From an uncultured Calditrichaceae bacterium (lineage in GTDB: Bacteria > Calditrichota > Calditrichia > RBG-13-44-9 > J075): a stretch of 64,000 nt of DNA. The notes beneath the pieces were generated by a model, which saw only the letters and a list, made by a program, of their open reading frames with translations, did no database searches and was not told where the DNA came from. The stretch covers positions 23,394 to 87,393 of the forward strand of contig CAZFVV010000001.1 in NCBI GenBank assembly GCA_964522165.1, read 5' to 3'. The position numbers and the translations under genes are program-made. Positions 2 through 47,816 of the stretch are shown here, one piece after another; the first letter of the stretch is position 1, and each line of letters opens with the position of its first letter.

Positions 2-736
2 AATACCCGGGTTTTTCTGGAAGGAGCCTACCTGGGACACGACACCATGCGTACGACCCTGGCTGATAACGGGTGGCTGCCGATGGAACAGCCGTTTAAC
101 ACCGCTCCCTGGCATTACCCGGGAAACGAAGCGGTCGAAAGCCCACCGGAAGAGGTGGTCGATTGGGTTCTCCTGGCGTTGCGAACCTCTCCCGAAGGCC
201 CCAATGAAACCTTTCGCGCTGCTCTCCTCAAAAACGACGGAACGGTGGCGGATATAGGCGGGGCTGCCCCGGTCAGCTTTGTTGACCAGGCCCCGGGAGA
301 ATACTACATCGTGGTGTATCATCGCAATCACCTGACCATCATGAGCAGCTCTGCGGTGGCATTGGATGGCAATTCTCCCCTGTATGATTTTACAGCCGAC
401 CCGGCCATGGCGTATGGAACAGACGCTTTGAAAGAATTGGAACGGGAGATATATGGAATGTATTGCGGCGACGCGAACGCCGACGGGCGGGTAACCCTAG
501 AGGATAAAGAGCTTTCCTGGCGGCCGCAAAACGGGACCGCCTGGGAGTATGGTAAATACGGGGACCTTAACCTGGACGGCGGGATTGATGTAAAAGACCT
601 CAACCTGTGCTGGCGCCATAATATCGATCAAATCTCGCAGGTTCCCGAAGCAGCCGCCGCTGCAAAACCCGCCCGGCTTCCGGCGGCTCCCCGGCAAGGC
701 GAAGGCCGCGCCCGGGGCGGCAGACAGGAGCAGTGA
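2..736 (+). CDS. Dockerin-repeat protein, 3' part. The reading frame is open from the window edge, so the gene probably starts upstream.
   Basis: Frame is open from nt 2 with no stop before the first ATG at 47. Two dockerin type I-like Ca-binding repeats are present (GDANADGRVTLED and GDLNLDGGIDVKDL). Stop codon at 734-736. Confidence 0.55.
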   Translation, partial: NTRVFLEGAYLGHDTMRTTLADNGWLPMEQPFNTAPWHYPGNEAVESPPEEVVDWVLLALRTSPEGPNETFRAALLKNDGTVADIGGAAPVSFVDQAPGEYYIVVYHRNHLTIMSSSAVALDGNSPLYDFTADPAMAYGTDALKELEREIYGMYCGDANADGRVTLEDKELSWRPQNGTAWEYGKYGDLNLDGGIDVKDLNLCWRHNIDQISQVPEAAAAAKPARLPAAPRQGEGRARGGRQEQ

Positions 737-886
737 GCAGAAGCGGAAGCAGGGGCAGGAGCAGGTATAGATAGGAGTGCAAATTTTAATTTGCACTAAC
801 CACTCCCGCACTAACTCTGGCTGTCCCCGATCCTGCTCCTGCCCCTGCCGCCTGCAAAACTGAAGTTTTGCACTCCTGCCCCTGTT
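727..886. repeat. Composite intergenic repeat: GCAGG-rich tandem units, then the palindromes GTGCAAATTTTAATTTGCAC (777-796) and TGCAAAACTGAAGTTTTGCA (853-872), then a C-rich complement
   Basis: Perfect inverted repeats are readable in the sequence. The same motif recurs at 8815-8885, 21615-21665, 30482-30505, 54182-54532 and 57325-57385. Confidence 0.6.
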
Positions 887-1951
887 TCACGGGGCGCTCT
901 CTCCCGGTTTATGCTCGAACAGGCCCAGGTAAAATTCCTTCATCGCCTCCTCCATTTGGCGCACTAAGTTGTTGGCAATGGATTTTTCCGCCAATAGCAC
1001 TGCATTCATAATCGCCTTGGCTTTGGAGCGCCCGTGCGCTTTGATGATCAGCTTTTGGAAGCCCAGGATCGGCGCGCCGCCGTACTCGGAATAGTCCAGG
1101 CGCTTTTTGAGCTTTTTGAGCTTGGGCGCCAGCATCATGATGCCCACTTTGGAGAGAATGCCCCGTTTCCAGATTTGCTTGCCGGTTTGCAGGGTCAATT
1201 CCGCCATGCCTTCTAAGCTCTTCAGCACCGTGTTGCCGGTGTAGCCTTCGGTCACGATCACGTCGGCGATGCCGCGCAGCACGTCCTTCCCCTCCACGTT
1301 GCCGATGAAATTTACCTGCGGCGTGCGCCGTAAAGTCTGATGGGTTTCCACTAACACGCTGTGCCCCTTGGTCTCCTCCTCCCCGATGTTCAGCAAGCCC
1401 ACCCGGGGATTCTCGATGCCCAGCACTCCCCTGGCATAGTGCAAACCCATAATCGCAAAACTGACCAGTTGGTTGACGGTTCCGTGCAGGGTCGCCCCAA
1501 CGTCGAGCATCACCGTCTTGCCGGGGTCGCCGAGTTTATGCCTGACCGCCGGGAGCACCGCCGCCAGCACCGCCCGCTCGATGCTGCCGATGCGGGAAAT
1601 CGCGTTGGAGCAGGCCAGCAGGGTGGCCCCGGTGCTGCCCGCGCTCACCAGGGCCTCGCCGTAGCCGTCGCGCAGCAGCCGCGCCGCCACGTTGATGGAA
1701 GCGTTGGGTTTGCTTAGAATCGCATCTTTAGGCGGGTCTTCCATGGAGATCACCTCCGGGGCGTGGATGATCTCCCAGCGGCTCTCGCGCAGCTTCTCCT
1801 TCTTCAGCAGGCTGCGCACGCCTAATTCATCACCCACAAAAATGCAATGGATGGTGGAACTCTTCCGGCACGCCTCCGCCGCGCCTTTCACGATTTCCTC
1901 GGGAGCGTGGTCGCCGCCCATGGCGTCTATCACGATGCGATTCCATTTCAT
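887..1951 (-). CDS. plsX: Phosphate acyltransferase PlsX
   Basis: 354 aa ORF. N-terminal IVIDAMGGDHAPEEIVKGA and the overall PlsX architecture match (established family knowledge). Confidence 0.88.
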   Translation of the reverse strand: MKWNRIVIDAMGGDHAPEEIVKGAAEACRKSSTIHCIFVGDELGVRSLLKKEKLRESRWEIIHAPEVISMEDPPKDAILSKPNASINVAARLLRDGYGEALVSAGSTGATLLACSNAISRIGSIERAVLAAVLPAVRHKLGDPGKTVMLDVGATLHGTVNQLVSFAIMGLHYARGVLGIENPRVGLLNIGEEETKGHSVLVETHQTLRRTPQVNFIGNVEGKDVLRGIADVIVTEGYTGNTVLKSLEGMAELTLQTGKQIWKRGILSKVGIMMLAPKLKKLKKRLDYSEYGGAPILGFQKLIIKAHGRSKAKAIMNAVLLAEKSIANNLVRQMEEAMKEFYLGLFEHKPGESAP

Positions 1952-2332: not shown

Positions 2333-4420
2333 ATGCAATTCCTTCGCTTTATCTCATTTTTATTGGGTTTAATGCTGTTGATTGGTTGGAGTAATATATT
2401 GAAAGGCAATTGGGGAAAAGGAAATCATAGTAATCAGTATGTTGATATAGATCCGAGTTCTTGTTCAGTTTTATTTAAAGATGGGAGAGTTCATATAATA
2501 GAGAACAGATTATCTAACTCTCTGCATAAATCCGTTCATAATTCGACCAACGCTTTTACCATTGACTTATTCCCGTTGAAAATCATGTCTGATTTTATAA
2601 TGAGTTATCTCTGGTTTTATGATGAATTAGGAAACGGGAACGATACCCTCATCTTTTTGGAAGATTCAGTAGCAAGTGTATTACGGCCTGCTGGCCGGTA
2701 CAGTCTCTTTGCGGGATATTGGCCTGATCAATATCAACACACCCTCATCGTAAAAGATCATATTCATTTAAGTGCCCCATCACAAGTTCAGATAACGGAA
2801 GAAGAAGCGGATCAGGCGCTGAATTTCAATTTACGTAAAGAGACTGGTAACCCTTTGGGAATTAGTGTTATCTCGTTTTATTTTTACAGCAAAATGAATG
2901 ATTCTAAGTTCAGGATTACCAGCTTCAATGATGGTTATAATACTTTTAGGTTAAAATACAATTTTATGCCTCAGTCATTTGAAAAAGAATGGGCAGTTAA
3001 GGGTAAACAACTCCATAATGGAGGGAATTTATACTTGTTAAGTGGTGAAATAACGGATGACCTACCGCCGACTACTAATATTACTAACAACCCGGCTAAT
3101 TTAGTTCATGCCGATTTTTATTATCATTTTCCAGATTCCCTAACCAATGGAAGCTATTTTCAAATATCCACTTTATTTCCTGATTTCCATTGGGCGGGAG
3201 CCGGCGATCCAATTTACACCCATCCGATTCAGTTAAGAGTATACCAGGATACTACTCTTAGTATTGCATTTCGAGCTTCTACGTTCATTCAATTTGTCTC
3301 AAGTAATGCCCTTTTTTACATTACAACTCATGAAGTTCGAATTGATAATCAAATGGTTACAGGATATTTCCTTTCCGATAGAAATGCTAGTTCATTCATT
3401 ATTTCAAATAAATTGGAAAAAACAAATTTGGGGTTGACACCGACTTACTGGTTTGGAAAATTTATGAATCAAGCAGACACTATTAAGATTCGTTCACCTC
3501 ACGGGAAATTTCAACATCTTTTTCTATCTCAGAGTAACGATATACTACTGCATTACAACGTAGATTTCCAAATTTTTAGTAATGGAGTAATCATTAAGGA
3601 AGGGAAGTTTCCCTATGCTGCTGGGAGTCCTATTATGTTTCTCGGATTTAATCCAGATAGCCTTACCATCCCGGTTTCACCAGGAACTTACGAGATGGTG
3701 ATCACCGATAACGATTATGAACTCAACGCACAGCCAGGCATTTCCCGCGTCAAAGCGAGATTTAATCTTAATCAATTAGATAGAAACCCGCCCAACATAA
3801 CACTTTTCCAAATTCTGGCTGAAGATGAATTAACTTATGCTTTGAATCCTTTCAATAACAATAGAGTGCGATTTACTTTGGAAGAAGAGGGAGTCGTAAA
3901 TGGCATTCAACTATTCTATGGAGCATGGAATGATAGCATTTGGCATGAAATCCCTCTCAACCATAATGCACCCTTTTGGGATGGTTCAATTCCTTATTTA
4001 AGCGAGGGTTTATATTCGTTAAGATTACTCGCCTGTGATGGTTTTCAAAATTATATTGATTGTATAATGTCGCCTGCATTTGTGATGGAAGAGAGCACCG
4101 CTATAAAGAATAATTCTCTTGGGATAAATTCTTTACAACAAATTCAGCTTTATCCGAATTATCCTAATCCTTTTAATGAACAGACATTAATCTCTTACGT
4201 AATTCCCAATAACTTTTCCAGTGAAATACAAATTGCTATTTACAACCTGCTTGGGCAAAAAGTGGCGATTTTATATGAAGGAAGGACAACGTCGGGGCAT
4301 CATCAACTTTATTGGAACGGAACAGACAGTGATGATAAGCAAACTGCGTCAGGTATTTATTATTTAGTATTGAAAGGAGGTGATCTAATCATTAAACAAA
4401 AATTGATAGTGATTCATTGA
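2333..4420 (+). CDS. Secreted hypothetical protein with a T9SS (Por) C-terminal sorting domain
   Basis: RBS AGGAGA 8 nt upstream and an N-terminal signal peptide. C-terminus reads YPNYPNPFNEQTLISY...IYNLLGQKVAIL...SGIYYLVLK, typical of a T9SS CTD. The gene is clearly AT-rich relative to its flanks. Confidence 0.8.
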   Translation: MQFLRFISFLLGLMLLIGWSNILKGNWGKGNHSNQYVDIDPSSCSVLFKDGRVHIIENRLSNSLHKSVHNSTNAFTIDLFPLKIMSDFIMSYLWFYDELGNGNDTLIFLEDSVASVLRPAGRYSLFAGYWPDQYQHTLIVKDHIHLSAPSQVQITEEEADQALNFNLRKETGNPLGISVISFYFYSKMNDSKFRITSFNDGYNTFRLKYNFMPQSFEKEWAVKGKQLHNGGNLYLLSGEITDDLPPTTNITNNPANLVHADFYYHFPDSLTNGSYFQISTLFPDFHWAGAGDPIYTHPIQLRVYQDTTLSIAFRASTFIQFVSSNALFYITTHEVRIDNQMVTGYFLSDRNASSFIISNKLEKTNLGLTPTYWFGKFMNQADTIKIRSPHGKFQHLFLSQSNDILLHYNVDFQIFSNGVIIKEGKFPYAAGSPIMFLGFNPDSLTIPVSPGTYEMVITDNDYELNAQPGISRVKARFNLNQLDRNPPNITLFQILAEDELTYALNPFNNNRVRFTLEEEGVVNGIQLFYGAWNDSIWHEIPLNHNAPFWDGSIPYLSEGLYSLRLLACDGFQNYIDCIMSPAFVMEESTAIKNNSLGINSLQQIQLYPNYPNPFNEQTLISYVIPNNFSSEIQIAIYNLLGQKVAILYEGRTTSGHHQLYWNGTDSDDKQTASGIYYLVLKGGDLIIKQKLIVIH

Positions 4421-6055: not shown

Positions 6056-8833
6056 ATGGCTAAGAAGTACGTCTATTATTTCGGTTCCAACGGCGCAGAT
6101 GGCCGCGCAGACATGAAAGAATTGTTGGGAGGCAAGGGCGCCAACCTGGCGGAGATGGTTAACTTAGGTATGCCGGTGCCTTCCGGTTTTACCATTTCTA
6201 CCGAAGTGTGTACTTACTACTACAAAAACAACCGCACCTACCCCAAGGAGCTTTCCGGCCAGGTGCTGCAAGCGCTGCGGAAAATGGAAAAAGAGATGGG
6301 CGCCAAATTCGGCGACAAAAACAATCCCCTGCTGATATCGGTTCGTTCCGGGGCGCGCAGCTCCATGCCCGGGATGATGGAAACGGTTCTGAACGTGGGA
6401 TTGAACGATACCACCCGCGAGGGATTGATCAAAAAGTCCAAAAATCCCCGCTTCGTGTACGATTCCCAGCGCCGCCTGATCCAGATGTATTCCGACGTGG
6501 TGATGGAAAAGGCCGCCGGCGTCGAGCCGAAAGAGGGCAAAGGTATTCGCCAGCAGTTGGAACACGAGTTGGAAAAGATGAAACACGCCAAAGGCTGCAA
6601 AAGCGACACGGACCTGACCGCCGATGATTTGCAAGAATTGATCGAAATTTACAAGCGGAAAGTGCGGGAAGTGCTCGGCAAACCCTTCCCGGAAGACGCC
6701 CTGGAGCAGTTATGGGGCGGGATCGGGGCGGTTTTCCAAAGTTGGAACGGCAAACGCGCCGTGGCCTACCGGCGGATCGAGGGCATCCCGGATTGGTGGG
6801 GCACCGCGGTCAACGTGCAGGCCATGGTGTTCGGAAACATGGGCGACTCCTCAGCCACCGGGGTGGGATTTACCCGCAACCCGGCCACCGGCGAGAACTA
6901 TTTCTACGGCGAATGGCTGCCCAACGCCCAGGGCGAAGACGTTGTCGCCGGCATTCGCACCCCCAACCCGGTCAACGAGGTGGGAAAATCCGAGCATACC
7001 CACCACCTGCCCTCCCTGGAAACCGCCATGCCCAAAGCGTATAAACAACTTCACCGGATTCAGAAGCAGTTGGAAAAGCATTACAAGGATATGCTCGACA
7101 TCGAATTCACCATCCAGGACGGCACGCTGTACATGCTGCAGTGCCGGGTGGGGAAACGGAACGGCCCCGCGGCGCTGAAAATGGCGTTGGACATGATGCA
7201 CGAAAAACTGATCGACGCAAAAACCGCGGTTGCCCGGGTGAAGCCGGAGCAATTGGATGAATTACTGCACCCGATTTTAGACCCCAAGGCGGAAAAAGCG
7301 GCTACCTCCATCGCCAAAGGTTTGCCTGCCGGCCCCGGCGGCGGAACCGGCAGGGTGGTGTTCAGCGCTAATGAGGCCGTGGAATGGGCTAAAAAAGGCG
7401 AAAAGGTCATTTTGGTGCGCGAAGAGACCAACCCGGAAGACATCGAAGGGATGCGCGCGGCGCAAGCCATCCTCACCGCCCGCGGGGGGATGACCAGCCA
7501 CGCCGCGCTGGTGGCGCGCGGCTGGGGAAAATGCTGCATCGTCGGCGCGAGCAGCATCAAGGTAAATTTCAAAGAGAAATATTTGATGGCCGGGGAGCAT
7601 AAGGTTAAAGAAGGCGACTGGATTTCCCTGAACGGCAGCAAGGGCGTGGTCTATCTCGGCCAGCTGGGCATGGTGAAGACCACCGAGGACAACCCCCTGT
7701 TCCAGGAGTTGATGAAACTGTGCGATAAATTCCGTCGCCTGAAAGTTCGCACCAACGCCGATACCCCGGAAGACGCCCGGAAGGCGCGGGCCTTCGGGGC
7801 GGAAGGAATCGGGCTGTTCAGAACCGAGCACATGTTCTACGGCAAAGGCTCCGAAGCTCCCTTGTTCAAGCTTCGCAAAATGATCATCTCCAAGACCGAA
7901 GCCGAACGCCGGGCGGCGTTGGAGGAGTTGTTTTCCCACGTGAAGAGCGACATCAAAGGCACCCTGGAAGCGATGGACGGCTTCCCGGTGACCATCCGCA
8001 CCCTGGATCCGCCTTTGCATGAATTTGTGCCCAATCACCACGAAGAGCAGGAAAAGCTCGCCAAAAGCCTCAATATCAGCCTGGAAGAATTCGAGAAACG
8101 CGCCAATGCGCTGCATGAAAACAACCCCATGATGGGGCATCGCGGGGTGCGGCTGGGCGTGACCTACCCGGAAGTGACCGAGATGCAAATCCGGGCGATC
8201 TTCGAGGCCACTGCGGAATTGCTGCAAAAAGGAAAAAAACCTTATCCCGAAATCATGATTCCGGTTACCTGCACCAGCGCTGAATTGAAGCACCAGTTCG
8301 ATCTGATTGCCCAGGTACACCAGGAGGTATGCGCGAAGTTCAAGATGAAAGCGATTCCCCACCTGGTGGGAACCATGATCGAAATTCCCCGCGCGGCGCT
8401 GACCGCGGATAAAATGGCCGAATATGCGCAGTTCTTCTCGTTCGGAACGAATGATTTGACCCAAATGACCTTCGGCTTCTCGCGGGACGACATCGGCGGG
8501 TTTTTACCCGATTACCTGGAGAAGCGCATCCTGCCGGGGGACCCGTTCCAACAGGTTGATCGCGATGCGGTGGGCGAGCTGATGAAGGTCGCCTGCGAAA
8601 AAGGGCGCAGCGCCCGGCCGGATATTAAACTGGGCATCTGCGGGGAGCACGGCGGCGACCCGGCTTCCGTGGAGTTTTGCCACCAATTAGGATTGTCGTA
8701 TGTCAGTTGCTCCCCCTTCCGGGTGCCGATTGCCCGGCTGGCCGCGGCGCAGGCGGCGCTGCGCGACTCCGCGCCGGCGCCCAAAAAGCAGAAAAAGGGG
8801 GCAGCGAGAGCCAGCCGGAGTGCAAAACTTTAG
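6056..8833 (+). CDS. ppdK: Pyruvate, phosphate dikinase
   Basis: 925 aa. RBS AGGAGA upstream. N-terminal KYVYYFGSNGADG...GGKGANLAEM, a central phosphohistidine region and the PEP-utilising C-terminal domain. Ends in a Lys/Arg-rich tail. Confidence 0.93.
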   Translation: MAKKYVYYFGSNGADGRADMKELLGGKGANLAEMVNLGMPVPSGFTISTEVCTYYYKNNRTYPKELSGQVLQALRKMEKEMGAKFGDKNNPLLISVRSGARSSMPGMMETVLNVGLNDTTREGLIKKSKNPRFVYDSQRRLIQMYSDVVMEKAAGVEPKEGKGIRQQLEHELEKMKHAKGCKSDTDLTADDLQELIEIYKRKVREVLGKPFPEDALEQLWGGIGAVFQSWNGKRAVAYRRIEGIPDWWGTAVNVQAMVFGNMGDSSATGVGFTRNPATGENYFYGEWLPNAQGEDVVAGIRTPNPVNEVGKSEHTHHLPSLETAMPKAYKQLHRIQKQLEKHYKDMLDIEFTIQDGTLYMLQCRVGKRNGPAALKMALDMMHEKLIDAKTAVARVKPEQLDELLHPILDPKAEKAATSIAKGLPAGPGGGTGRVVFSANEAVEWAKKGEKVILVREETNPEDIEGMRAAQAILTARGGMTSHAALVARGWGKCCIVGASSIKVNFKEKYLMAGEHKVKEGDWISLNGSKGVVYLGQLGMVKTTEDNPLFQELMKLCDKFRRLKVRTNADTPEDARKARAFGAEGIGLFRTEHMFYGKGSEAPLFKLRKMIISKTEAERRAALEELFSHVKSDIKGTLEAMDGFPVTIRTLDPPLHEFVPNHHEEQEKLAKSLNISLEEFEKRANALHENNPMMGHRGVRLGVTYPEVTEMQIRAIFEATAELLQKGKKPYPEIMIPVTCTSAELKHQFDLIAQVHQEVCAKFKMKAIPHLVGTMIEIPRAALTADKMAEYAQFFSFGTNDLTQMTFGFSRDDIGGFLPDYLEKRILPGDPFQQVDRDAVGELMKVACEKGRSARPDIKLGICGEHGGDPASVEFCHQLGLSYVSCSPFRVPIARLAAAQAALRDSAPAPKKQKKGAARASRSAKL

Positions 8834-8885
8834 TTTTGCCACTCACGTTGCCTGCCGACAGTGCAAAGCTGAAGCTTTGCACTCC
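8815..8885. repeat. Palindromic intergenic repeat GAGTGCAAAACTTTAGTTTTGCCACTC plus AGTGCAAAGCTGAAGCTTTGCACTCC
   Basis: Two imperfect palindromes of the TGCAAAAC-NNN-GTTTTGCA family sit immediately after the ppdK stop. Confidence 0.6.
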
Positions 8886-9494: not shown

Positions 9495-12121
9495 AGGCCA
9501 GGATCGATACGGAATTCTTGCCCTTTGTCAGCAAGCCTGCGCGATACCTGGGAAACGAGTATAACGCCGTTCTGAAATCCCCCCGGCCGGGGGAACTGCG
9601 CGTGGCCCTGTGTTTTTCCGATTTGTACGAAGCGGGAATTCGCAATACTGCATTTGAGACGTTATACCACTGTTTGAACAGCCAGCCGAAAATTTCCGCG
9701 GAACGGGTTTATACTCCCTGGACCGACGCGGAAACGGTTCTGCACGCTGCCGCTATCCCACTGTTTTCGCTGGAATCCAAATTCCCCCTGAACAAGTTTG
9801 ATCTGCTCGTTTTCTACCTCCCGGATGTATTATCATTTACCAACCTCTTAACCATGTTGCATCTCGGCGGCGTTCCGCTTCGCTCCCGGGAGCGGAACGC
9901 CGGGGAACCGCCGGTGATTGGCGTCGGCCCCGCGCTCATCAATCCCGAACCGCCGGCTGTTTTCCTGGATGCGGCCGTTCCCGGGGACCCCGTAGCCGCC
10001 CTGTGGGAAATTGCCGCGGCGGCGGAACGCGCAAAGAGCGAGCGCCGAGACAGGCAGGAGTTCCTCCGGGCTATCGCGGCAATCCCCGGGGTGTATGTTC
10101 CTTCATTTTATGAGCCGTTGTATAACGATTTTAAGGAATTCCAGGGAATTACCCGCTTAGAGACTACCGCGCCGGAGCGTATCCGCAGCGCTGCCGCCGG
10201 GTCCGGCGCTAAGGATGAAAAAATCTGCCCGCTGAAACCGCTGCAGCCCCCGGGAGATTTGCCCAACAATCGCCCCGCGGCCGGCCAGTACGAACGCTTT
10301 ACGGGGGAAAATAACCGTTTCGCTCCCGGGCGGGTATTTCCCCCGGCGGTGCAGCAATCCGCGGAAAATTTGTACCGGGAATTGCAAAAATGCTTGCAGG
10401 GAAGCGGCGCGGAGCCGGCGGCGCGGTTATTATCCAATGATTCGCTTTTCCGGGAAACCGGTTGGGGATTCGCCAAGGAGAAATGCCTTGCAGAAGAGCA
10501 CCTGATAAGCGTCTCCGTTCCTTCTGCGGAATTAGCGCTGCGCCTGCCGGCAACCGGGGAGCTGGCCAACGCGCTGAAGGAGAATGGGTTCGCCCTCTCG
10601 CCCCTGGCTGGCAGCCCGCGCCTGCGCAGCGTGTTGAACCTGAACCTGCGCGACCAGGATATTTTAGACGCGGTCAAATTGGCGCTGGAGAGCGGCTGGC
10701 AAACCATCCGGCTGAATTTTATGCTCGGCCTGCCCGCCGAAAAGCCGGAAGATGCCGAGGCCATCGCCGCCCTGGCCAAAAAATGCCTGGATCTCGCCAA
10801 ATCCTATCCGGAAGCGCAGCTGCTGGTCTCGGCGCAGGGGTTTTCGCCGAAAGCTCATACGCCTTTCCAGTGGGAAAAACAGGAATCCGCGGCGCTGCTG
10901 GAAGAGAAATTCGAGCAGCTCCGGCAAAGCTTAGCCGACCTCCCGGTAAAAACCGTTTTTCAAAATCCCCGCCTGGCCAGCTTAGAAACCGCCCTCTCCC
11001 GGGGCGACCGCAGGATGGGCGAGGTGATCGAGAGCGCCTGGCAGCGGGGAGCGCGCCTCGACGCCTACAAGGAAACTTTTCGCGGGGAGGCCTGGGAGCG
11101 GGCGTTCCGGGAAAAGGAGATCGACTGGGAGGCCTGCCTCTCGCCCATCTCCGTTACCGTGGCGCTGCCCTGGGACCACATCGACCTGGGCGTCTCCAAA
11201 GCGGATCTCAAAGAAGAAAAGTTGCGGGCTTACCAGGGGCAGTTGCACCCCCGGAACAAGGATATGGTTTCGTTAGGCTACGGGGGATTGCCGCGAACGG
11301 AGTTCGAGGCGCTGCTGTGGAGCAATCTACCGGCGGAGCGGGGAAATAGCGCGGGGACGGTTTCCCGGCCCCGGCTCGAGGCGATGGCTGATTCGCAGGG
11401 GGAGGCCATCCAGTACGGCCGCCGGGAACGCAAGCGCCAGGCCCCAGTGCAGGTGATCAAGCGAAAAATCCGCATCCGCTATTCCAAATCCGGCCCGGCG
11501 CGGTTCCTTTCGCACCTGGACATCGTGCGGGTGTTCGACTTTTCCGCGCGGCTGGCGAAAATTCCCTTAGTATATTCACAAGGACTGCGCCCGAATCCCA
11601 AAATTTCGTACGCGCTTCCCCTAAGCCCCGGGGTCGCTTCCACTGCGGAGTACCTGGATATGGAAGTGGAAATCGGGCGGGAGACCGATATCCAGGGGCG
11701 TTTCAACCGGTTTTTGCCCGGCGGCATCCAGATTCTGCAATACCAGGGCATTTTCGCCAAAGTGCCGGCCCTGGCCGCGGTGATCAACCGCTCCACTTAT
11801 GAAACGCTGCTAACGGATTTCAGCCTGCCGGAAGAATGGGTTGCGGAGTGGCTGGCCCAACCGGAAGCGCCGGTTCGCCGGGAGACCAAGGAGGGGATGA
11901 AGGAGGTCGATATTCGCCCCTACGTACGCCAAATGAAGCGCACGCAGAGCAATTTAAATGTAACGATTGACATCATCGAAGGAAGAACTGCTAAAATAAC
12001 CGAAGTATTGGAATCGCTGCTTTCCCCCCGAGGGATCGAGTATCGAAAATTCCAGGTTCAGCGAACGGGACAATATATCGTCGAGAACGATTCGATTTTA
12101 ACACCTTTTGATATTATTTAG
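9485..12121 (+). CDS. Fusion protein: TIGR03960-like radical-SAM-family protein (N-terminal B12-binding-like domain) joined to a DUF2344/TIGR03936 'radical SAM-linked' domain. The canonical CX3CX2C motif is not detectable.
   Basis: N-terminus FVSKPARYLGNEYN...LRVALCFSDLYEAG matches TIGR03960. The C-terminal RIRYSKSGPARFLSHLDIVRVFDFSARLAKIPLVYSQGLRPNPKISYALPLSPGV matches DUF2344. The start overlaps the argR stop by 10 nt. Confidence 0.75.
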   Translation: MELKARIDTEFLPFVSKPARYLGNEYNAVLKSPRPGELRVALCFSDLYEAGIRNTAFETLYHCLNSQPKISAERVYTPWTDAETVLHAAAIPLFSLESKFPLNKFDLLVFYLPDVLSFTNLLTMLHLGGVPLRSRERNAGEPPVIGVGPALINPEPPAVFLDAAVPGDPVAALWEIAAAAERAKSERRDRQEFLRAIAAIPGVYVPSFYEPLYNDFKEFQGITRLETTAPERIRSAAAGSGAKDEKICPLKPLQPPGDLPNNRPAAGQYERFTGENNRFAPGRVFPPAVQQSAENLYRELQKCLQGSGAEPAARLLSNDSLFRETGWGFAKEKCLAEEHLISVSVPSAELALRLPATGELANALKENGFALSPLAGSPRLRSVLNLNLRDQDILDAVKLALESGWQTIRLNFMLGLPAEKPEDAEAIAALAKKCLDLAKSYPEAQLLVSAQGFSPKAHTPFQWEKQESAALLEEKFEQLRQSLADLPVKTVFQNPRLASLETALSRGDRRMGEVIESAWQRGARLDAYKETFRGEAWERAFREKEIDWEACLSPISVTVALPWDHIDLGVSKADLKEEKLRAYQGQLHPRNKDMVSLGYGGLPRTEFEALLWSNLPAERGNSAGTVSRPRLEAMADSQGEAIQYGRRERKRQAPVQVIKRKIRIRYSKSGPARFLSHLDIVRVFDFSARLAKIPLVYSQGLRPNPKISYALPLSPGVASTAEYLDMEVEIGRETDIQGRFNRFLPGGIQILQYQGIFAKVPALAAVINRSTYETLLTDFSLPEEWVAEWLAQPEAPVRRETKEGMKEVDIRPYVRQMKRTQSNLNVTIDIIEGRTAKITEVLESLLSPRGIEYRKFQVQRTGQYIVENDSILTPFDII

Positions 12122-12196
12122 TGTTCGAGTGTTATAGTGTTCTGGTGTTATAGTGCTTTAGTTTCTTCGCACTAAAACACTAAAACACCTGAACAC
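12121..12196. repeat. Long imperfect palindrome made of 8-nt periodic units: GTGTTCGA GTGTTATA GTGTTCTG ... AACACTAAAACACCTGAACAC
   Basis: Tandem GTGTTNNN units are mirrored by NNNAACAC units. Related copies lie at 13797-14052, 19648-19745, 35513-35595 and 62625-62660. Confidence 0.6.
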
Positions 12197-13796: not shown

Positions 13797-14052
13797 CTGT
13801 GTTCGGGTGTCATGGTGTTCGGGCGTTATAGTGTTCGAGTGTTTTAGTTTCGGGTTTTACGTTTTAAGTTTTGGTTCTCTATCATAATTTTACGTGAATT
13901 AAGGGTTGAAATATCTGATTGGATTCGGAGGGGACAGGGGGGAGGTCATAAACCGATTTTACGATAAGTTCTATACCGTGCTTCCAACCCTTAATTGGCA
14001 TTAAAACACCAAAACACTTGAACACTAAAACACTAAAACACCATAGCACCGC
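13797..14052. repeat. Nested composite repeat: a GTGTTNNN-type left arm (13797-13860), an inner element bounded by GAATTAAGGGTTG...CAACCCTTAATTGG (13888-14000) containing GGGGACAGGGGGGAGGTCATAA, and an NNNAACAC right arm (14000-14052)
   Basis: Read directly from the sequence. The inner element recurs at 62650-62800 attached to only a left arm. Confidence 0.6.
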
Positions 14053-17810: not shown

Positions 17811-17874
17811 TAGTTTCGAGTTTTGAGTTTTGAGTTTTGAGTTTTGGGTTTTGGGTTTTGGGTTTTGGGTTGGG
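17811..17874. repeat. Tandem 8-nt repeat (GTTTTGAG x3 then GTTTTGGG x4) immediately upstream of the DUF2461 gene
   Basis: Direct tandem array readable in the sequence. Confidence 0.75.
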
Positions 17875-19647: not shown

Positions 19648-19745
19648 GCGTGTTCATGTGTTCGAGTGTTATAGTGTTCTTGTGTTTTAGTATTTGGGTA
19701 GGATTCGCAGGTGCTAAAACACTAAAACACTTGAACACCATCGCA
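19648..19745. repeat. GTGTTNNN/NNNAACAC 8-nt periodic palindrome
   Basis: GTGTTCATGTGTTCGAGTGTTATAGTGTTCTTGTGTTTTAG...CTAAAACACTAAAACACTTGAACAC. Confidence 0.6.
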
Positions 19746-21435: not shown

Positions 21436-21660
21436 GGGTGCCACGGACGCAGCACAAATTGCACTGGAGGCAGAGCCTCCAAGAGTGCGTTACACAGCAG
21501 AGCTGTGTAACGAGTAATTTGATATATCTCGTTCCAGTGCTCTGCACGGAACGGATTCTTTCGAGGTTCCGCCTCGAATTTGTGCAATTTGTGCTGCGCC
21601 CAGTGCCACGAAGTGGCTCCTTTGAAGCAAAACTTCAGTTTTGCCCCTGCCCCCGCTCCC
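21436..21660. repeat. Structured intergenic element flanked by CACAAATTGCACTG ... GTGCAATTTGTG inverted repeats; contains the perfect palindrome GTTACACAGCAGAGCTGTGTAAC and ends in the GCAAAACTTCAGTTTTGC palindrome
   Basis: Inverted repeats are readable. A second copy with the same ends is at 24690-24830. Confidence 0.5.
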
Positions 21661-21664
21661 GGCG

Positions 21665-23170
21665 TTACGCGCCATAGAGGTAATACACGCTCTCGCGCGG
21701 GACAATGGCGTCGAAAATCTCTTCGTTGTGAGAGATCATCAAAATCGCCTTTCCTTCCCGCTGCTTTTCCTGCAGGGCGGCGATCACTTTTTGAATGCTC
21801 AGGAAATCCAGCCCGTTGAGCGGCTCATCGAAGATCAGCAGGTCGGTGTCGAGCACCAGGGTGCGCAGCAGGTTGAGGCGCTGCTTCTGGCCCCCGCTGA
21901 GGTGGGCGACTTTTTTGTTCAAAAAAGCGCCGTCGATCTCCATGTCGAACAATTCCCGCAAGCGCATGCGAATGTAGGCGTCGTTCAGTTCTACCCGCGA
22001 GGGCAGCCCGCCGAATACCTCTTTGACCTTCGCTTTCAAGTTCAGGGCTTCGTCCGCGTGTTGAAAGGCCATCCCGGCCAGTTTTCCCCACACCAGCTTG
22101 CGCCAGGCGGCCCCGGGAGTTCGCTCGCTGAATTTCCAGCGCCCGATGACCATTTCCAGGTTTTTACACTCCTGCAATCCCATGATAATCTTCGCCAGGG
22201 TGGTTTTGCCCACCCCGCTGGCGGCTTTTAAATAGATGATTTCTCCCGGTAGAACGTGTAACATCCCGTAATCCTTGCGGCTGCCGTCGTTGGAGATGAT
22301 CATCTTTTTCCCGAAAACCTCGTAGCCGCCGCGGATTTGCAGCAGCGGCTTTGCTGCCGGATTTTGGGGCGCAGCGACCGGTTTTTCCGCCCGCAGCCAC
22401 TCTAAGTAGGCCCGGGGGGCGAAATCGCGCAGCGCCAGCCCGCCCCCCCGAAGGGATAATTCTTTATAAGCGATTTGTTCCCGCAGACCGGCATATTTTT
22501 CGTACACTTCGCTGATAATCGAATAATCGTGGGTGATCAGCAGGGCGGTAAACGGGAACCGCTGGAATTGTTCGAATAATAATTTCAGGAAGAGGTTGCG
22601 GAAATTGTTGTCGAGACTGCCGGTAGGCTCGTCGAAGATGAATAAATTGGTTTCACCGCCGCCGGAAGGCTGCGGATTGGACTGCGCCAGGCCGATCTTT
22701 TTGAAGGCCATGGCCAGCAGGATGCGCTGTTTTTCTCCCCCGCTGGGGCGGTACGGTTTGGGATAGACGTTCAGGATATTTTGAATGGGTTCATCGCGCC
22801 CGGTATTCCAGAGGCGGCGCAGGATTTCCTGCTCCCCGGGGGCGGTTTTCAGGCTGCCCTCTTTCAGTTGCTCGCTGAGCCGGAGCAGGGGATTCAGATG
22901 GGTGGAAGGCTCCTGGAACACGAAAAACCCGTTTTGCTGAATGCGCCGGGTGGATTCCTGCTCCAGGTAGGCGGGGTAATCCATGCCGTTGATCTGCACC
23001 TCTAAGAGCGCGGGATCCAGCAGTCCGAAAACCGCTTTGGAGAGGATGGTTTTGCCAATGCCGGATTCTCCGAACAAAAAGGTGATTTTATGATCGGGAA
23101 TATCGAACCGGTCGATGGAAACGATGGTCTTGTTCAGCCGGGCGATGTGAATTCGGAATTCCAGGGGCAT
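21665..23170 (-). CDS. ABC transporter ATP-binding protein with duplicated ATPase domains (YejF/OppDF-like)
   Basis: Two Walker A boxes (GESGIGKT and AASGVGKT) and two signature motifs (SGGEKQR and LSGGQKQR). Confidence 0.85.
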   Translation of the reverse strand: MPLEFRIHIARLNKTIVSIDRFDIPDHKITFLFGESGIGKTILSKAVFGLLDPALLEVQINGMDYPAYLEQESTRRIQQNGFFVFQEPSTHLNPLLRLSEQLKEGSLKTAPGEQEILRRLWNTGRDEPIQNILNVYPKPYRPSGGEKQRILLAMAFKKIGLAQSNPQPSGGGETNLFIFDEPTGSLDNNFRNLFLKLLFEQFQRFPFTALLITHDYSIISEVYEKYAGLREQIAYKELSLRGGGLALRDFAPRAYLEWLRAEKPVAAPQNPAAKPLLQIRGGYEVFGKKMIISNDGSRKDYGMLHVLPGEIIYLKAASGVGKTTLAKIIMGLQECKNLEMVIGRWKFSERTPGAAWRKLVWGKLAGMAFQHADEALNLKAKVKEVFGGLPSRVELNDAYIRMRLRELFDMEIDGAFLNKKVAHLSGGQKQRLNLLRTLVLDTDLLIFDEPLNGLDFLSIQKVIAALQEKQREGKAILMISHNEEIFDAIVPRESVYYLYGA

Positions 23171-27261: not shown

Positions 27262-27354
27262 AAGGCGCATGGCGCAGAGCGCGGAGGGCAGAGCGCAAAA
27301 GGTAATGCGTACGGGGCGTGAAAAGCTTTCTCTATGCGCCATGCGCCATGCGCC
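27262..27354. repeat. GCGCATGGCGCAGAGCGC-family hairpin repeat
   Basis: GGCGCATGGCGCAGAGCGCGGAGGGCAGAGCGC ... TGCGCCATGCGCCATGCGCC; copies also at 29581-29752 and 32370-32485. Confidence 0.6.
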
Positions 27355-28735: not shown

Positions 28736-29750
28736 CCTTCCCGCGCACTTCGATGGCGCCCTGGCGCCGGGAGACCCGGTAGGGCGCGCCGAGCAATGCG
28801 TTCTCCAAATGATCCACGAGTTGCCCGGCGCTTTCCGGGAAGACCTGGGGAGAGGGCGCGCCTTCCAAAACACAGTGAACCCGGTTCGCCTCTACCTCTA
28901 CGATCCAGCGGGGCGGGGTGCGGCGCTGGCCGGTTTGCGCGTTGAGATACGCAAAAAGCTCCGCCAGCACCCGGTTTGTTTCCGCAATCCGGCTTTCGAC
29001 CCTTTGCACGATTTCGGGGGGAATGCTCTCCGCGACCGCCGCAGTTCTGCGGTAGATGCGCCAGGAGCGCTCCCGGGATTCATTCGCCAGGTTCGACCAG
29101 CCATAGCGCGGTTCTCCGCCCGGATTTTTGACATACACCCGGCCGCGGTAAGCAAATAAGCGCAGCAGCCGCTCCCCCTTTTCCAGGTAGAATCGCTGCG
29201 CGCGCGGGGTGGATTCGGGCGCAGGATTTTGCGTGATAAACAACGCCTGGTTCGCCAACACCTCTACCGTATCCCGCAGCAGGGTGCAATTATCGAAAAC
29301 CCGGTGGAAACCGATGCGATCCGCGTGCATAAGCTGCCGGCGCTCGTCGGCGAGGAGGAAATAGAGCGAATGGTCGGCCTGCACCTTTATACAGGGAGTG
29401 AATCCGTCGCTCAAATACCCATCGGCGTCTATGATTTGCAAGGGCTGATAGGGTGCCAGGGGGGTTTCCTGCCGGGCATCGATGCGCTGCTGGAATTTGT
29501 CATAAATGACCAGCTCGCGGGGATTTTCAACGGTCAGGAAGTCTGCGGTCTGGGCGGGGAGAAGGCCGCTAAGCGCAAAGAGCAGGGCGCAGAGCGCAGA
29601 GCGCAGAGTGCATGGCGCATAGCGCATGGAGCAAGGAGCAGAACGCAGAGTGCATGGTGCAAAGGGGGAATCGGAGAGCCGGCAGCACGTACGCCCCACG
29701 CTCTGCGCCATGCGCCATACGCTCTGCGTCATGCGCTTTGCTCCCCTCAC
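28731..29750 (-). CDS. Hypothetical secreted protein. The first roughly 40 codons, including a plausible signal peptide (LCALLFALSGLLPAQTADF), are encoded by the GCGCATGG repeat.
   Basis: Long ORF. A believable start is the ATG near 29624 (MRYAPCTLRSALCALLFAL...). Confidence 0.5.
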   Translation of the reverse strand: MRGAKRMTQSVWRMAQSVGRTCCRLSDSPFAPCTLRSAPCSMRYAPCTLRSALCALLFALSGLLPAQTADFLTVENPRELVIYDKFQQRIDARQETPLAPYQPLQIIDADGYLSDGFTPCIKVQADHSLYFLLADERRQLMHADRIGFHRVFDNCTLLRDTVEVLANQALFITQNPAPESTPRAQRFYLEKGERLLRLFAYRGRVYVKNPGGEPRYGWSNLANESRERSWRIYRRTAAVAESIPPEIVQRVESRIAETNRVLAELFAYLNAQTGQRRTPPRWIVEVEANRVHCVLEGAPSPQVFPESAGQLVDHLENALLGAPYRVSRRQGAIEVRGKE

Positions 29751-29752: not shown

Positions 29753-30403
29753 CAACATCCTCTTTAGAAAGTTCAGGTTTTCCTCGGGGCTGAAAATCGC
29801 CGGGATGGGAATCTCGAACCCGTCGATTACCAGGCTTTTCACCGTTCCCGATCCGGATTTGCTGAGCAGTTGGTACTCCTCGCCTTTCAGAACGTATTGC
29901 TCTAAGATTTGCTGATCCGGGTCGATGATCCAGTACTCGCCGACGCCGTGGGCGGCGTAATCCTCGAATTTGATCTCGCGGTCGAAATGCTCAGTGCCGG
30001 GGGACAATACTTCCGCGATAAAATCCGGCGCCGGGAACTTAACCTGGTTTGGCTGGAAGAATTTAGATTTCTCGCGCTTAAAAAAGCAGATATCCGGTTC
30101 GTAATCATTGCGAGTAAATGAAACCATGATTTTTTCGATTCCTACGTAACCGAGATCGTTGATTCGAGCGTAGTTGTCAAGGAGAATTGCCAGTAGTTTT
30201 ACTGCGTTATTGTGGCTCAACCTTACCGGGGTATGATAGACAATTTCCCCGTTGATAAATTCAGCCTTATCATCTTCCTTGATTTGCCGGTAAAACTGTT
30301 TCCGCTTTTCCTGCTCCGCGGAAAGAATCTCCTGGATTTCCTCCAGGTAGAGTTTCAGCTTTGGAGAGTTGCGCAGTTTTTCTAACAAAGCGGTTTCCAT
30401 CAT
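29747..30403 (-). CDS. Uma2-family (DUF820) endonuclease-fold protein, second copy
   Basis: 218 aa. AEFINGEIVYHTP...PDICFF...PDFIAEVLSPGTEHFDREIKFEDYAAHGVGEYWIIDP is the Uma2 core. Confidence 0.8.
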   Translation of the reverse strand: MMETALLEKLRNSPKLKLYLEEIQEILSAEQEKRKQFYRQIKEDDKAEFINGEIVYHTPVRLSHNNAVKLLAILLDNYARINDLGYVGIEKIMVSFTRNDYEPDICFFKREKSKFFQPNQVKFPAPDFIAEVLSPGTEHFDREIKFEDYAAHGVGEYWIIDPDQQILEQYVLKGEEYQLLSKSGSGTVKSLVIDGFEIPIPAIFSPEENLNFLKRMLK

Positions 30404-30481
30404 TCAACTCCCTGGCTTATGTATGCTGATGTAACAGAAATCCTTCGCCGAAGACGAAATCTGCCTCCCGGCCCCTGCCCC

Positions 30482-30505
30482 GGCAAAACTGAAGTTTTGC
30501 ACTCC
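30482..30505. repeat. Palindrome GGCAAAACTGAAGTTTTGCACTCC
   Basis: Same family as 853-872 and 54184-54204. Confidence 0.6.
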
Positions 30506-30599
30506 TAATCCACCCGCTCACGCCATTTGAGTCTGGAAGACGAAATCCCGACATGCGGCCAGGGAAGGCCGCGTCTTTGTCGGGATTCTCACCCAGCCC

Positions 30600-32339
30600 C
30601 TAATCCACCCGCTCTCTCCATTTCTCAATCGTAGAAAGCTGCGAGGCCACCCCGTAGAGATCGATGCTGCCGGCCTCGAACTGGGTGCGAAAATAGGCCA
30701 GTGAGGGCAGGGAGAATAACCACGCGCCCAGGGCCAGCTCCTGTTCGACCTGGTCCACGTACTGGGCGTACACCTGTTTGTCGCCGATATGGTTGGTGTG
30801 CATAAATCCGTACGTGTATTCCAAGAATTTCAGGGTCGCTTCCTGTTCGGGGCCGCCGCGGGCGGCGTCGAGGCGGCAGAAATTGTTGTTCGCCTGTAAC
30901 GATTGGGGAGCGGCGACGGAAGCGCCTTTAGCGTCCATCTGGGTCGCCAGGCTGATTTTGTAGGTTTCCAAATCCGGTTCCCGCAAAAAGATATTGTAGA
31001 GATCGAACAAAAAGGTGCTGCGATAGCCGTCGATGGCGATCAGCAGGGCGTCGTAATCGCCCTGTTTGACGGCGTCGTTGGTCACCGCCAGGGCGCGAAC
31101 CCGTCCACGGGTCAGGGCCGGGTCGTTCAGGATATCGAGCAAATCCGCGTATTCCTCGCGGTGGCCGTAATTCAGGCATCCCACGATACGCAAAGTGTCC
31201 GGCAGCAGGGAGAAGTCCGGCGAGGAGGTATCCTGTGGCGGCGGCAATACGATTTCTTCTTCCACGTAATAGGTGGTGGAGGGGAAAACGCTGCGGTTCA
31301 GATAGTCGGAATAATTATCGGAGTTGCCTTTATAGTCGGTGATATGGCGCTGCTGGGGCGTGTTCACCTTGTAGAAGCGCTCCACAATAGCGCGGTTGTT
31401 GAAGAGCTTTCGCGCTTCTTTCCGTTGCGCCTGGTTCAGGCGCTGGGTGTTGAACAGCAGGGCGAAAAAAGTGGTGCTGATATTGGATTTATAGAAATAC
31501 TTCTCGGGATTTTCCAGAATCGGGGAAAGGCTACCGAAGGGAGTGCTCAACAGCACGTTGAAGTTATTGTTTTTGAATTCCGTGGTATAGGTGCTGTTGT
31601 CGATATAGGGTTTCAGGTTTACCCGGGTGATGGTGGCGCTGCCGGCGGGGCTGCGGTAGTAATTGGAGGTTTCGGCCAGTGGCGTGAGGGCCAGGTACGG
31701 GCCGCTGCCGTTATAGAAATTCAGGGCGTTCAGATCGGAGTTGGCCGGGATGATTTTAAAAGAGAGCACTTCCATGATGTCCGCGTCGGTCCAAATCCGG
31801 TCGCTCTTGAATTGGAAGCGAATCTCCCCATTGGCGTCCGGCCCCTCGAAATCCCAGGATTGTAGCGCCTGGGAAACCAGGATGTAATCCGGCGACAGGC
31901 TTCCTAAGTCACGGATACGCCGCAGGGTAAAGCGCAAATCTTCCGCGGAAAAATAACGATCCTGCGCATCGGTGATCGTCACCTCATCATCTTTCACCTG
32001 CACGTTAAAACTGCTGTGCCATTTTTTCTTGATATTCAGACGTACGGTAACGACGTTGTTCGCGTCAATGCCGATGAATTCTCCTAAGCCGTCCTCGTAA
32101 ATGATGCCGCTGGGGTTGGCGGAAATATTGAACAGCCCGTCGAAGAGCACCTCATCTAACTTGTCGGAGAGGTCCACCGCATGGGGCAGGTGCGGATCGA
32201 TGACCGGTTTCTGGTGCGAAATGTAAGGAATGGCGATCTGGTCCGATAAATCCTTGCGCAATACCAGCCAGAGAACCAACACTAACAATGCCACCCCCAG
32301 TACGGTCCCCCCGATGATGAAAATGTTCTTTTTCTGCAT
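30600..32339 (-). CDS. ABC transporter substrate-binding protein, family 5 (peptide/oligopeptide-binding), membrane-anchored
   Basis: 579 aa, N-terminal TM anchor, size and layout of SBP_bac_5. Permeases lie downstream on the same strand. Confidence 0.72.
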   Translation of the reverse strand: MQKKNIFIIGGTVLGVALLVLVLWLVLRKDLSDQIAIPYISHQKPVIDPHLPHAVDLSDKLDEVLFDGLFNISANPSGIIYEDGLGEFIGIDANNVVTVRLNIKKKWHSSFNVQVKDDEVTITDAQDRYFSAEDLRFTLRRIRDLGSLSPDYILVSQALQSWDFEGPDANGEIRFQFKSDRIWTDADIMEVLSFKIIPANSDLNALNFYNGSGPYLALTPLAETSNYYRSPAGSATITRVNLKPYIDNSTYTTEFKNNNFNVLLSTPFGSLSPILENPEKYFYKSNISTTFFALLFNTQRLNQAQRKEARKLFNNRAIVERFYKVNTPQQRHITDYKGNSDNYSDYLNRSVFPSTTYYVEEEIVLPPPQDTSSPDFSLLPDTLRIVGCLNYGHREEYADLLDILNDPALTRGRVRALAVTNDAVKQGDYDALLIAIDGYRSTFLFDLYNIFLREPDLETYKISLATQMDAKGASVAAPQSLQANNNFCRLDAARGGPEQEATLKFLEYTYGFMHTNHIGDKQVYAQYVDQVEQELALGAWLFSLPSLAYFRTQFEAGSIDLYGVASQLSTIEKWRERVD

Positions 32340-32369
32340 ATTTTTCCTTTCTATCGCTCAGTTTTTTTT

Positions 32370-35595: not shown

Positions 35596-35669
35596 ACTAT
35601 AACCCGAATTTTCTTCAAAACGTCACATAAGCCATAACGGTATTCTACACAAACAGCGAGGTTCGGATC

Positions 35670-47815: not shown

Positions 47816-47816
47816 C

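Follow-up and report, generated by a model that had tools for sequence, protein, structure and literature searches.

Described REP systems and the repeats of the window

The closest described counterparts of the repeats reported here are the group 3 REPtrons of Stenotrophomonas maltophilia, Pseudomonas and Marinomonas and the REP doublets forming hairpins (REPINs) of Pseudomonas, in which repetitive extragenic palindromes (REPs) go together with a REP-associated tyrosine transposase (RAYT). Their REPs are short perfect palindromes with stems of 5-8 bp and loops of 3-4 nt, placed after a conserved tetranucleotide (PMC8266576, PMC3116915, PMC2817692). They are extragenic, numerous and partly arranged as inverted doublets that form long hairpins; the RAYT gene lies between copies of its own REPs, and the REP sequence co-varies with the RAYT. 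The traits of the repeats themselves recur in a 64-kb stretch of DNA from an uncultured bacterium (the window) and in related genomes, the bracketed RAYT gene in the related genomes. Nine copies of a palindrome of 16-18 bp, eight of them headed by GGAG(T), are scattered across six intergenic regions of the window, with about none expected by chance. These repeats are very likely the REPs of a REP/RAYT system, or REPtron, presumably spread by a RAYT encoded elsewhere in the genome. They differ from group 3 REPtrons in their GGAG(T) head, which replaces GTAG/GTGG, and in a stem that is A/T-rich and not GC-rich. Moreover, the RAYT of the relatives belongs to a clade with the motifs P(I/V)WWNYWDYCPR, NYLLxNP and EAEDDDF, which matches no subclass signature tabulated in PMC6006769, and the hosts are Calditrichaceae-like bacteria and other non-model lineages.

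The comparison can be extended to other systems. The REPs and bacterial interspersed mosaic elements (BIMEs) of Escherichia coli, with their transposase TnpA_REP (RayT/YafM; PDB 4ER8; PMC3479197), share with the present repeats a homologous RAYT, copies at gene 3' ends and, presumably, a 5' tetranucleotide and hairpin recognised on single-stranded DNA. E. coli REPs are however about 35 nt long, GC-rich and imperfect, with a required bulge and a GTAG head, whereas the copies described here are perfect palindromes of 16-18 bp. The ends of IS200/IS605 insertion sequences (ISs) such as IS608 and ISDra2 are likewise subterminal single-stranded hairpins handled by an HUH/Y1 enzyme, and a tetranucleotide 5' of the hairpin guides the cleavage site (PMC8266576). 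These are autonomous multi-copy ISs in which tnpA, often with tnpB, lies between two different hairpins, while the present repeat is dispersed alone and the transposase occupies one syntenic locus in two relatives (L052 and L184). The GTAG- and CGTC-tagged superfamilies (PMC3733652) offer another parallel, being short stem-loops with a tetranucleotide tag at one end and a frequent RAYT association, but the tag here is GGAG, and that paper contains 0 GGAG-tagged occurrences.

The repeat lacks the GTAG/GTGG tetranucleotide of the canonical GTAG superfamily (Nunvar 2010; Di Nocera 2013), which the REP finder of PMC6006769 also required. A GGAG-tagged class of REPs was encountered neither in PMC3733652, PMC5581495 or PMC6006769 nor in a search of the REPtron/TnpAREP literature, and in PMC2817692 GGAG appears only inside longer GTGG-headed REPs such as TGTGGGAGCGGG. 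Another Calditrichota host, Caldithrix abyssi, carries an 18-nt palindrome, aAACCGTTgaAACGGTTt (PMC5317091), that is alike in its 8 + 2 + 8 nt design, its directional GA/TC centre and its intergenic location, avoiding divergent regions and being found in convergent ones. Its authors counted 38 exact copies, reported neither a conserved flank nor a transposase link, likened the palindrome to REPs and left it unexplained (PMC5317091). Its sequence differs from that of the window repeat, and its motif AACCGTTNNAACGGTT has no match in any of the fetched loci. A relationship between the two palindromes is only a lead. The window repeat adds an unusual GGAG head to a familiar kind of element, in a lineage that has hardly been studied, and it calls for no new mechanism. 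To our knowledge, work on REPs and the domesticated transposases that go with them has dealt almost exclusively with Proteobacteria and cyanobacteria, where GTAG is the hallmark.

Structure of the repeat unit

In one orientation, the consensus unit reads GGAGT-GCAAAACT-TC-AGTTTTGC-(A). It comprises a 5' GGAG(T) head, a perfect A/T-rich stem of 8-9 bp and a 2-nt centre that is effectively a 4-nt loop. The units are 22-24 nt long with perfect stems of 7-9 bp, and a lone unit folds, as DNA, at -5 to -7 kcal/mol only. The original prediction, made from the letters of the window alone, had listed the sites at which a palindrome recurs, and every one of them exists. A scan for hairpins with GCA...TGC stems places the nine copies at 779-794, 854-871, 8822-8839, 8863-8880, 21627-21644, 30483-30500, 54186-54203, 57332-57347 and 57363-57378. 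Two sites, 853-872 and 54185-54204, match the strict pattern TGCAAAAC-N2-8-GTTTTGCA, with 0.00 matches expected from 100 shuffles. In a stem-blind scan of the window, which required only GGAG and, no more than 2 bases after it, a perfect hairpin with a stem of 7 bp or longer, 8 sites were detected, all of them members of the palindrome family; 30 Markov shuffles gave 0.7 sites on average. The copies are listed below with the scans that support them.

774-796, plus strand: REP copy 1, short-stem variant GGAGTGCAAATTTTAATTTGCAC; GGAG and a perfect 8-bp hairpin
853-876, minus strand: REP copy 2, canonical GGAGTGCAAAACTTCAGTTTTGCA; strict pattern and GGAG-hairpin scan
8817-8839, plus strand: REP copy 3, GGAGTGCAAAACTTTAGTTTTGC; sequence and GGAG-hairpin scan
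8862-8885, minus strand: REP copy 4, compensatory variant GGAGTGCAAAGCTTCAGCTTTGCA; REPIN-like inverted doublet with copy 3
21600-21644, plus strand: composite variant, made of hairpin CCAGTGCCACGAAGTGGCTCC, TTT and GAAG-CAAAACTTCAGTTTTG-C; sequence
30483-30505, minus strand: REP copy 6, single, GGAGTGCAAAACTTCAGTTTTGC then CGGGGCAGGGG; sequence and GGAG-hairpin scan
54181-54204, plus strand: REP copy 7, single, canonical; strict pattern and GGAG-hairpin scan
57327-57348, plus strand: REP copy 8, variant GGAGTGCAAAATTTATTTTGCA; left doublet member in the convergent region 57259-57440
57362-57383, minus strand: REP copy 9, compensatory variant GGAGTGCAGAATTGATTCTGCA; right member of the 57327-57383 doublet

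The GGAG(T) head stands 5' of eight of the nine copies, on one side only, and the opposite flank is free. The GGAG...CTCC flanks proposed originally are thus real as regards the conserved 5' GGAG(T); they are not symmetric in single copies, CTCC being found mainly in inverted pairs. In the composite variant, GAAG is a head degenerated from GGAG, and the same composite form, GGAGCGCCACGAAGTGGCTCCTTTGGAGCAAAACTTCAGTTTTGC, is present in L013, L019, L039, L055 and L068. Besides the one-sided head, the central TC, which reads GA on the other strand, gives the palindrome a polarity. The octamer GGAGTGCA occurs 108 times in the window and the related loci taken together, and the palindrome follows it in about 98 of these occurrences.

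The stem varies in a compensatory manner. Across 22 distinct 24-mers, 95.5% of cells pair, and two stem positions are changed in mirrored fashion in both arms, from A-T to G-C in nine sequences and from A-T to T-A in three. Covariation at this level was reached by 0 of 500 shuffles. Examples of paired stem variants are GCAAAGCT/AGCTTTGC and GCAATGCT/AGCATTGC; the shorter stems GCAAATT/AATTTGC and GCAGAAT/ATTCTGC are likewise perfectly paired. A gathering-threshold Rfam scan of the whole window gave 0 matches, so that the palindrome is not a described RNA family, and a tRNA/tmRNA scan of the window found none. A clustered regularly interspaced short palindromic repeat (CRISPR) array was rejected, the copies being single or in inverted pairs scattered over 57 kb with no regular array, and an attC-like reading was rejected on anatomy.

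Linkage to RAYT genes in related genomes

The identical repeat is physically linked to RAYT genes in relatives of the window organism. Segment L052 of the metagenome-assembled genome (MAG) Calditrichaceae MAG_33 carries 8 exact cores within 1.4 kb and, between them, a gene of 181 aa (3551-4096). Its protein scores 98.4 bits against the NCBIfam equivalog NF047646 REP_Tyr_transpos (cut-off 80) and 23.2 bits against Pfam Y1_Tnp. It aligns with E. coli TnpA_REP (PDB 4ER8) at E = 3.9e-9, with the HUH (NHYH) and tyrosine (NYLLWNP) motifs in register. On these scores it can be assigned to the TnpA_REP family and not to IS200 TnpA. The canonical GGAGTGCAAAACTTCAGTTTTGCA is found on both sides of this gene: a minus-orientation REP ends about 10 nt before the start codon, and a truncated partial copy, then a plus-orientation REP, come shortly after the stop.

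This arrangement is not confined to MAG_33. The identical 24-nt REP brackets RAYT orthologues at 78% (L182/L183), 75% (L184/L185) and 61% (L106) identity. As in L052, the RAYT gene of L184/L185 lies between M16 and M1 peptidase genes; other homologues have different neighbours. Two further orthologues, at 70% and 69%, are accompanied by altered stems, one having lost an A (GGAGTGCAAACTTCAGTTTGC) and the other reading GGAGTGACAAACT..., with an unchanged head in both cases. A perfect hairpin lies no more than 300 nt from the gene in 89 of 94 RAYT-clade loci, and over the 94 loci its 5' foot is GGAG in 73, GTAG in 3, GTGG in 3 and CGTC in 5. The GGAG foot of these 73 loci, together with the altered stems of the orthologues, indicates that the head is constant in the clade whereas the stem co-varies with the protein.

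The clade counts at least 399 members at E <= 1e-30. Their source labels include Desulfonema, Anaerolineales, Methylococcaceae and Candidatus Vecturithrix, and one member is already named REP-associated tyrosine transposase by NCBI. The motifs WVILDNHYH, P(I/V)WWNYWDYCPR and NYLLxNPxxHGY are invariant in the clade alignment (L052 3551-4093 with P0002-P0096), NHYH and NYLLxNP being invariant in 20 homologues, and most members end in EAEDDDF. This acidic tail presumably resembles the C-terminal tip (DDDIPF) of the bacterial single-stranded-DNA-binding protein SSB, and may be a putative interaction motif relevant to action on single-stranded DNA. A tblastn search with the L052 RAYT against the window and the first 101 loci returned L052 itself only. 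A weak match in L097 (E = 0.18) was dismissed as chance, the ORF (open reading frame) being devoid of RAYT features. No RAYT was found in the 11 PRO9 segments searched.

Distribution and host

The protein encoded by plsX, a gene of the window, was found on contigs of one Joint Genome Institute (JGI) metagenome and of four Logan assemblies. The 4 Logan contigs (L002-L005) all end at window base 855, inside copy 2, which is the effect of a genome-wide repeat on the de Bruijn graph. A scan for the 18-mer core, with one genome per species, yielded at least 96 stretches. Most of the matches listed fall in three MAGs, namely Calditrichaceae MAG_33, 'Deltaproteobacteria bacterium PRO9' and 'bacterium SD8033', with the core on at least 34 MAG_33 segments and at least 11 PRO9 contigs, and all three MAGs have the GGAGT flank. 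The original prediction was to be abandoned if the motif proved no more frequent than composition allows, or restricted to this contig; it is far above chance and present well beyond the contig.

The PRO9 contig L045 is 94-97% identical to window positions 29878-36534, which places the window in the same species as PRO9 or in a sister species, and copy 6 (30483) is conserved at the orthologous site of this contig. MAG_33 is more distant, with about 68% DNA identity in a conserved gene. The host is an uncultured bacterium near-conspecific with PRO9 and related to Calditrichaceae. The window and contig L001 contain genes typical of the Fibrobacteres-Chlorobi-Bacteroidetes (FCB) group, with Por_Secre_tail domains of the type IX secretion system (T9SS) type near the PlsX gene, and DUF5683. 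PRO9 (WYBG01 contigs) has the REP family and the RAYT-clade repeat in common with Calditrichaceae MAG_33. An affiliation with the FCB group and Calditrichota would fit better than the Deltaproteobacteria label of PRO9, which is probably a misassignment at NCBI.

Other arrangements of the repeat were seen in this survey. In L052 (2860-3440), L011, L059 and L079, REPs are included in longer tandem arrays with periods of about 47/94 and 126 nt. BIME-like clusters occur in MAG_33 and PRO9, with REPs alternating with degenerate units such as GGAGCGCAACACTTCAGTTTTGC, and one of these clusters adjoins the RAYT gene. The 18-nt core GCAAAACTTCAGTTTTGC is also part of a different repeat, AGAGGC-nnnn-core-nnnn, of termite-gut Treponema/Spirochaetaceae MAGs (L007, L016, L017, L027, L029, L036, L053, L069, L072, L082, L083, L091, L092 and L097). 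Its outer 4 bases are complementary and co-vary between copies, and it is usually followed by GC-AACCGyTGAAAAAyGC. It has no GGAGT head, and the segments searched contained no RAYT homologue.

Genomic position and doublets

The window is about 88% coding, and seven of the nine copies lie wholly outside ORFs, in statistics based on ORF lists and not on curated gene calls. Of the two others, one covers the last 17 nt of ppdK. The second sits in an ORF composed of a GCAGG array only; this ORF overlaps the sigma-54 activator gene too and is in all likelihood spurious. In a stricter test based on stop-free stretches, 57 of 61 copies in MAG_33 and 12 of 16 in PRO9 do not lie far inside long open frames; the REP sequence itself has open frames, and ORFs read through REPs. 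In the case of ppdK, the ORF (6056-8833) runs into copy 3 and ends at a TAG made by the TTTA variant of the loop. The REP supplies the last codons of this ORF (..S-A-K-L-stop), and the Pfam PEP-utilizers_C match ends earlier, at residue 900 of 925.

All six loci are found just downstream of a stop codon. Copies are present in 2 of 4 convergent, 4 of 38 co-directional and 0 of 4 divergent intergenic regions. The neighbours named at the outset, ppdK, the sigma-54 activator and the DUF5683 gene, were correctly identified. Copy 1 is the left doublet member in the convergent region 737-886, where its hairpin is nested inside a GCAGG/CCTGC stem, and copy 2 is directly downstream of plsX (887-1951, minus strand). 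The composite variant is downstream of an ABC-F type ATPase gene (21665-23170, minus strand). Copy 6 is downstream of gene 30600-32339 (minus strand) and shares its orientation. Copy 7 starts 10 nt past the stop of the sigma-54 activator gene (52693-54171), and its 3' GCA is the first unit of a GCAGG array.

Three of the six loci (774-876, 8817-8885 and 57327-57383) are inverted doublets, all with the heads outwards (+-), and this orientation is also that of 17 of 26 adjacent pairs in MAG_33. As a single strand, the segment 8812-8890 folds into one long hairpin (-25.5 kcal/mol, z = -5.3), and so does 57322-57388 (-17.6 kcal/mol, z = -6.4). In these two doublets, 8817-8885 and 57327-57383, the units pair with each other in the REPIN arrangement. 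The two units of 774-876 fold as separate hairpins.

GCAGG arrays

The GCAGG-type tandem flanks that had been noted beside the palindromes are confirmed by a count of the motif GCAGGRGCAGG, which occurs 18 times in the window against 0.18 expected, and only at 749-848 and 54202-54516. They form the following arrays.

725-765, plus strand: GCAGG-type hexamer array, G-rich on the plus strand; repeat scan and fold
832-855, minus strand: inverse partner of 725-765, reading CCTGCC on the plus strand and adjoining REP copy 2
54202-54404, plus strand: about 34 GCAGGG/GCAGGA/GTAGGG hexamers (TRF), starting in the last bases of copy 7
54486-54517, minus strand: CCCTGC on the plus strand; short array, inverse partner of the long one and about 80 nt beyond it

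The array 725-765 pairs with 832-855 in a stem of about 17 bp that encloses copy 1, and the array 54486-54517 is upstream of a Ser/Thr kinase gene (54553-56280). Arrays of about 200 nt, comparable to 54202-54404, are found directly beside a REP in L070 and at 27 nt from a REP in L066. Arrays often begin exactly at the 3' GCA of a REP (window 54202, L070, L061) and often have a short inverse partner 70-130 nt away, as with 749-765 and 832-848 or 54202-54404 and 54486-54517. Over the window and the related loci, 13 of 23 arrays are at most 100 nt from a REP, 10 of these 13 being G-rich on the strand that carries the adjacent REP head; other arrays are kilobases away. As the related loci were chosen for containing REPs, this association is suggestive and not proven. 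The GCAGG arrays are a real and recurrent companion of the REPs, which possibly arises by slippage seeded by the REP end, or reflects G-quadruplex-prone DNA with the unit (GGGGCAGGAGCA)n.

Proposed mode of spread and alternative explanations

A mode of spread can be drawn by homology from the studied systems (PMC3479197, PMC8266576). Each unit would fold into a hairpin on single-stranded DNA, by analogy with the substrates of the E. coli, Stenotrophomonas and Marinomonas TnpA_REP enzymes. A single-copy HUH/Y1 tyrosine transposase, encoded elsewhere in the window genome, would recognise the hairpin and its GGAG foot and cut a dinucleotide beside the REP through a 5'-phosphotyrosine intermediate. 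Rejoining or transfer of the strand would then spread REPs and doublets, over evolutionary time, into the non-essential DNA at gene ends. For the studied systems, it is proposed that a CT cleavage site is chosen through positions 3-4 of GTAG (AG). These two positions are kept in GGAG, which makes CT the first guess for the cleavage site here.

Several observations weigh against a REP/RAYT origin. There is no RAYT gene in the 64-kb window (best tblastn E = 7.6), and none was recovered from the samples of the window organism (3300009873, SRR152378xx), the look-ups of the closest homologues (P0002, P0003, P0004, P0006, P0007, P0010, P0022 and P0025) leading to other samples. The search for a RAYT suggested by the original prediction was thus positive in relatives and negative in the window, and the RAYT link is one of relatedness and not of co-residence. 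The GGAG head departs from GT[AG]G, by which the REPs described so far are defined (PMC3733652, PMC6006769). Cleavage is nearly abolished in Stenotrophomonas when position 2 of the head is altered (PMC8266576), so that the mechanism can be transferred to GGAG heads only conditionally. Furthermore, the flanks of the copies, read by eye, show neither a conserved CT nor another candidate cleavage dinucleotide, and no insertion/absence polymorphism of a REP was seen, the only orthologous site available (L045) keeping its copy.

The REP-type element initially suggested nevertheless accounts for the one-sided head and hairpin, the extragenic dispersal, the inverted doublets and the flanking of RAYT genes in relatives, and the alternatives fare less well. 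The hairpins could be, mainly, RNA elements at mRNA 3' ends, either terminators or barriers to 3'-exonucleases, repeated to serve the needs of many genes. Their place just past a stop codon at all six loci would suit this role, as would the canonical single copies 30483-30505 and 54181-54204, oriented as their upstream gene, and the stabilisation of upstream mRNA by E. coli REPs (cited in PMC5317091). The doublet 57325-57381, the only one with T-rich tails, has them on both outer sides and is flagged as terminator-like on both strands, TTTTCTG following the stem of copy 8 in its minus-strand reading. The stems of the other seven of the nine copies, however, are not followed by a T-run, and none of these copies was flagged; this organism also possesses ordinary terminators. 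The one at 56299-56335, with a 17-bp stem, a 3-nt loop and a TTTTT tail, follows the Ser/Thr kinase/PEGA gene 54553-56280 and shows their form. Terminators conserve structure and not a 24-nt sequence with a one-sided head across genomes that are about 68% identical in conserved genes, and the identical sequence around RAYT genes would be left unaccounted for. As an origin for the repeats, this explanation is improbable. A role as 3'-end RNA hairpins is possible as a secondary use by the host, which the data do not require.

A protein-binding operator had also been envisaged in view of the 8-nt half-sites; it would lie on double-stranded DNA and be bound by a dimeric transcription factor or by a nucleoid-associated protein. 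Perfect dyad symmetry and the location of the pair 8817-8885 about 150 nt upstream of argR would speak for it, but its probability is very low. The 4 divergent regions are free of copies and 2 of the 4 convergent regions have them, the mutations mirrored in both arms point to selection for pairing and not for a protein half-site, and GGAG(T) is conserved on one side only. With about one copy per 7 kb beside unrelated genes, the repeat is linked to no regulator gene, whereas it is linked to a RAYT gene. Slimmer still is the chance that the doublets are miniature inverted-repeat transposable elements (MITEs) derived from an IS with a DDE transposase, the palindromes serving as terminal inverted repeats. 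The doublets 8817-8885 and 57327-57383 do resemble two inverted termini around a short spacer, yet no target-site duplications are visible around the doublets (flanks read by eye) and single units are as common as doublets. In addition, each unit is a hairpin with a 5' tetranucleotide foot, the type of substrate used by HUH/Y1 enzymes, and RAYT genes, at 5 independent loci, are the only ones found with the repeat on either side.

Taken as a REP/RAYT system, the repeats have several implications. A clade with another guide tetranucleotide, changed at position 2 and kept at positions 3-4, amounts to a natural experiment on head reading and on the choice of the cleavage site. The conservation of an exact 24-nt repeat while the RAYT diverges to 61% fits REPINs and RAYTs as long-lived, vertically inherited partners. 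At a practical level, the repeats break short-read assemblies, create spurious ORFs and alter gene ends, as with the ppdK stop codon; annotators of Calditrichota-like MAGs should therefore mask them. A broader proposal, which is tentative and somewhat less probable than its converse, is that the GGAG(T) palindromes and the clade of 181-aa RAYTs constitute a third REP tag superfamily beside GTAG and CGTC. It would be present in Calditrichaceae-like bacteria, Desulfonema, Anaerolineales, Methylococcaceae and Candidatus Vecturithrix, would have escaped REP finders based on GT[AG]G, and could explain the Caldithrix abyssi palindrome. In the same proposal, the GCAGG arrays could be a by-product of RAYT nicking or strand transfer, a REP-seeded microsatellite growth and not a separate repeat.

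Other repeats of the window

The genome is unusually rich in tandem repeats of 6-8 nt. A second intergenic family consists of plus-strand tandem octamers GTGTTCGA/GTGTTATA, with 13 matches against 0.01 expected, in arrays at 12119-12166, 13799-13855, 19650-19691 and 35514-35547. Three of these four arrays are followed within about 5-150 nt by inverse-type arrays (CACTAAAA, TAAAACAC, CTAAAACA), located at 12170-12188, 14002-14041 and 19714-19731. This layout of an array and its inverse partner is the same as that of the GCAGG/CCTGC pairs. Heptamer arrays lie at or across gene boundaries at 17812-17871, 27272-27354, 29572-29741, 32370-32483 and 47771-47817, the heptamers being AGTTTTG (x8.6), GCGCAGA/ATGCGCC, AGCGCAG/TGCGCCA, CGCATAG/ATGCGCT and CCTTATA.

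Finally, a 95-bp segment of the window (30528-30622) is missing from the otherwise 94-97% identical PRO9 contig L045, and the window holds no further copies of it. A 24-bp direct repeat, CTAATCCACCCGCTC(A/T)C(G/T)CCATTT, marks its ends, and it contains an inverted repeat, AATCCCGACA...TGTCGGGATT, around a GCGGCC...GGCCGC hairpin. This segment may have arisen by duplication, or by the insertion of another, small element.

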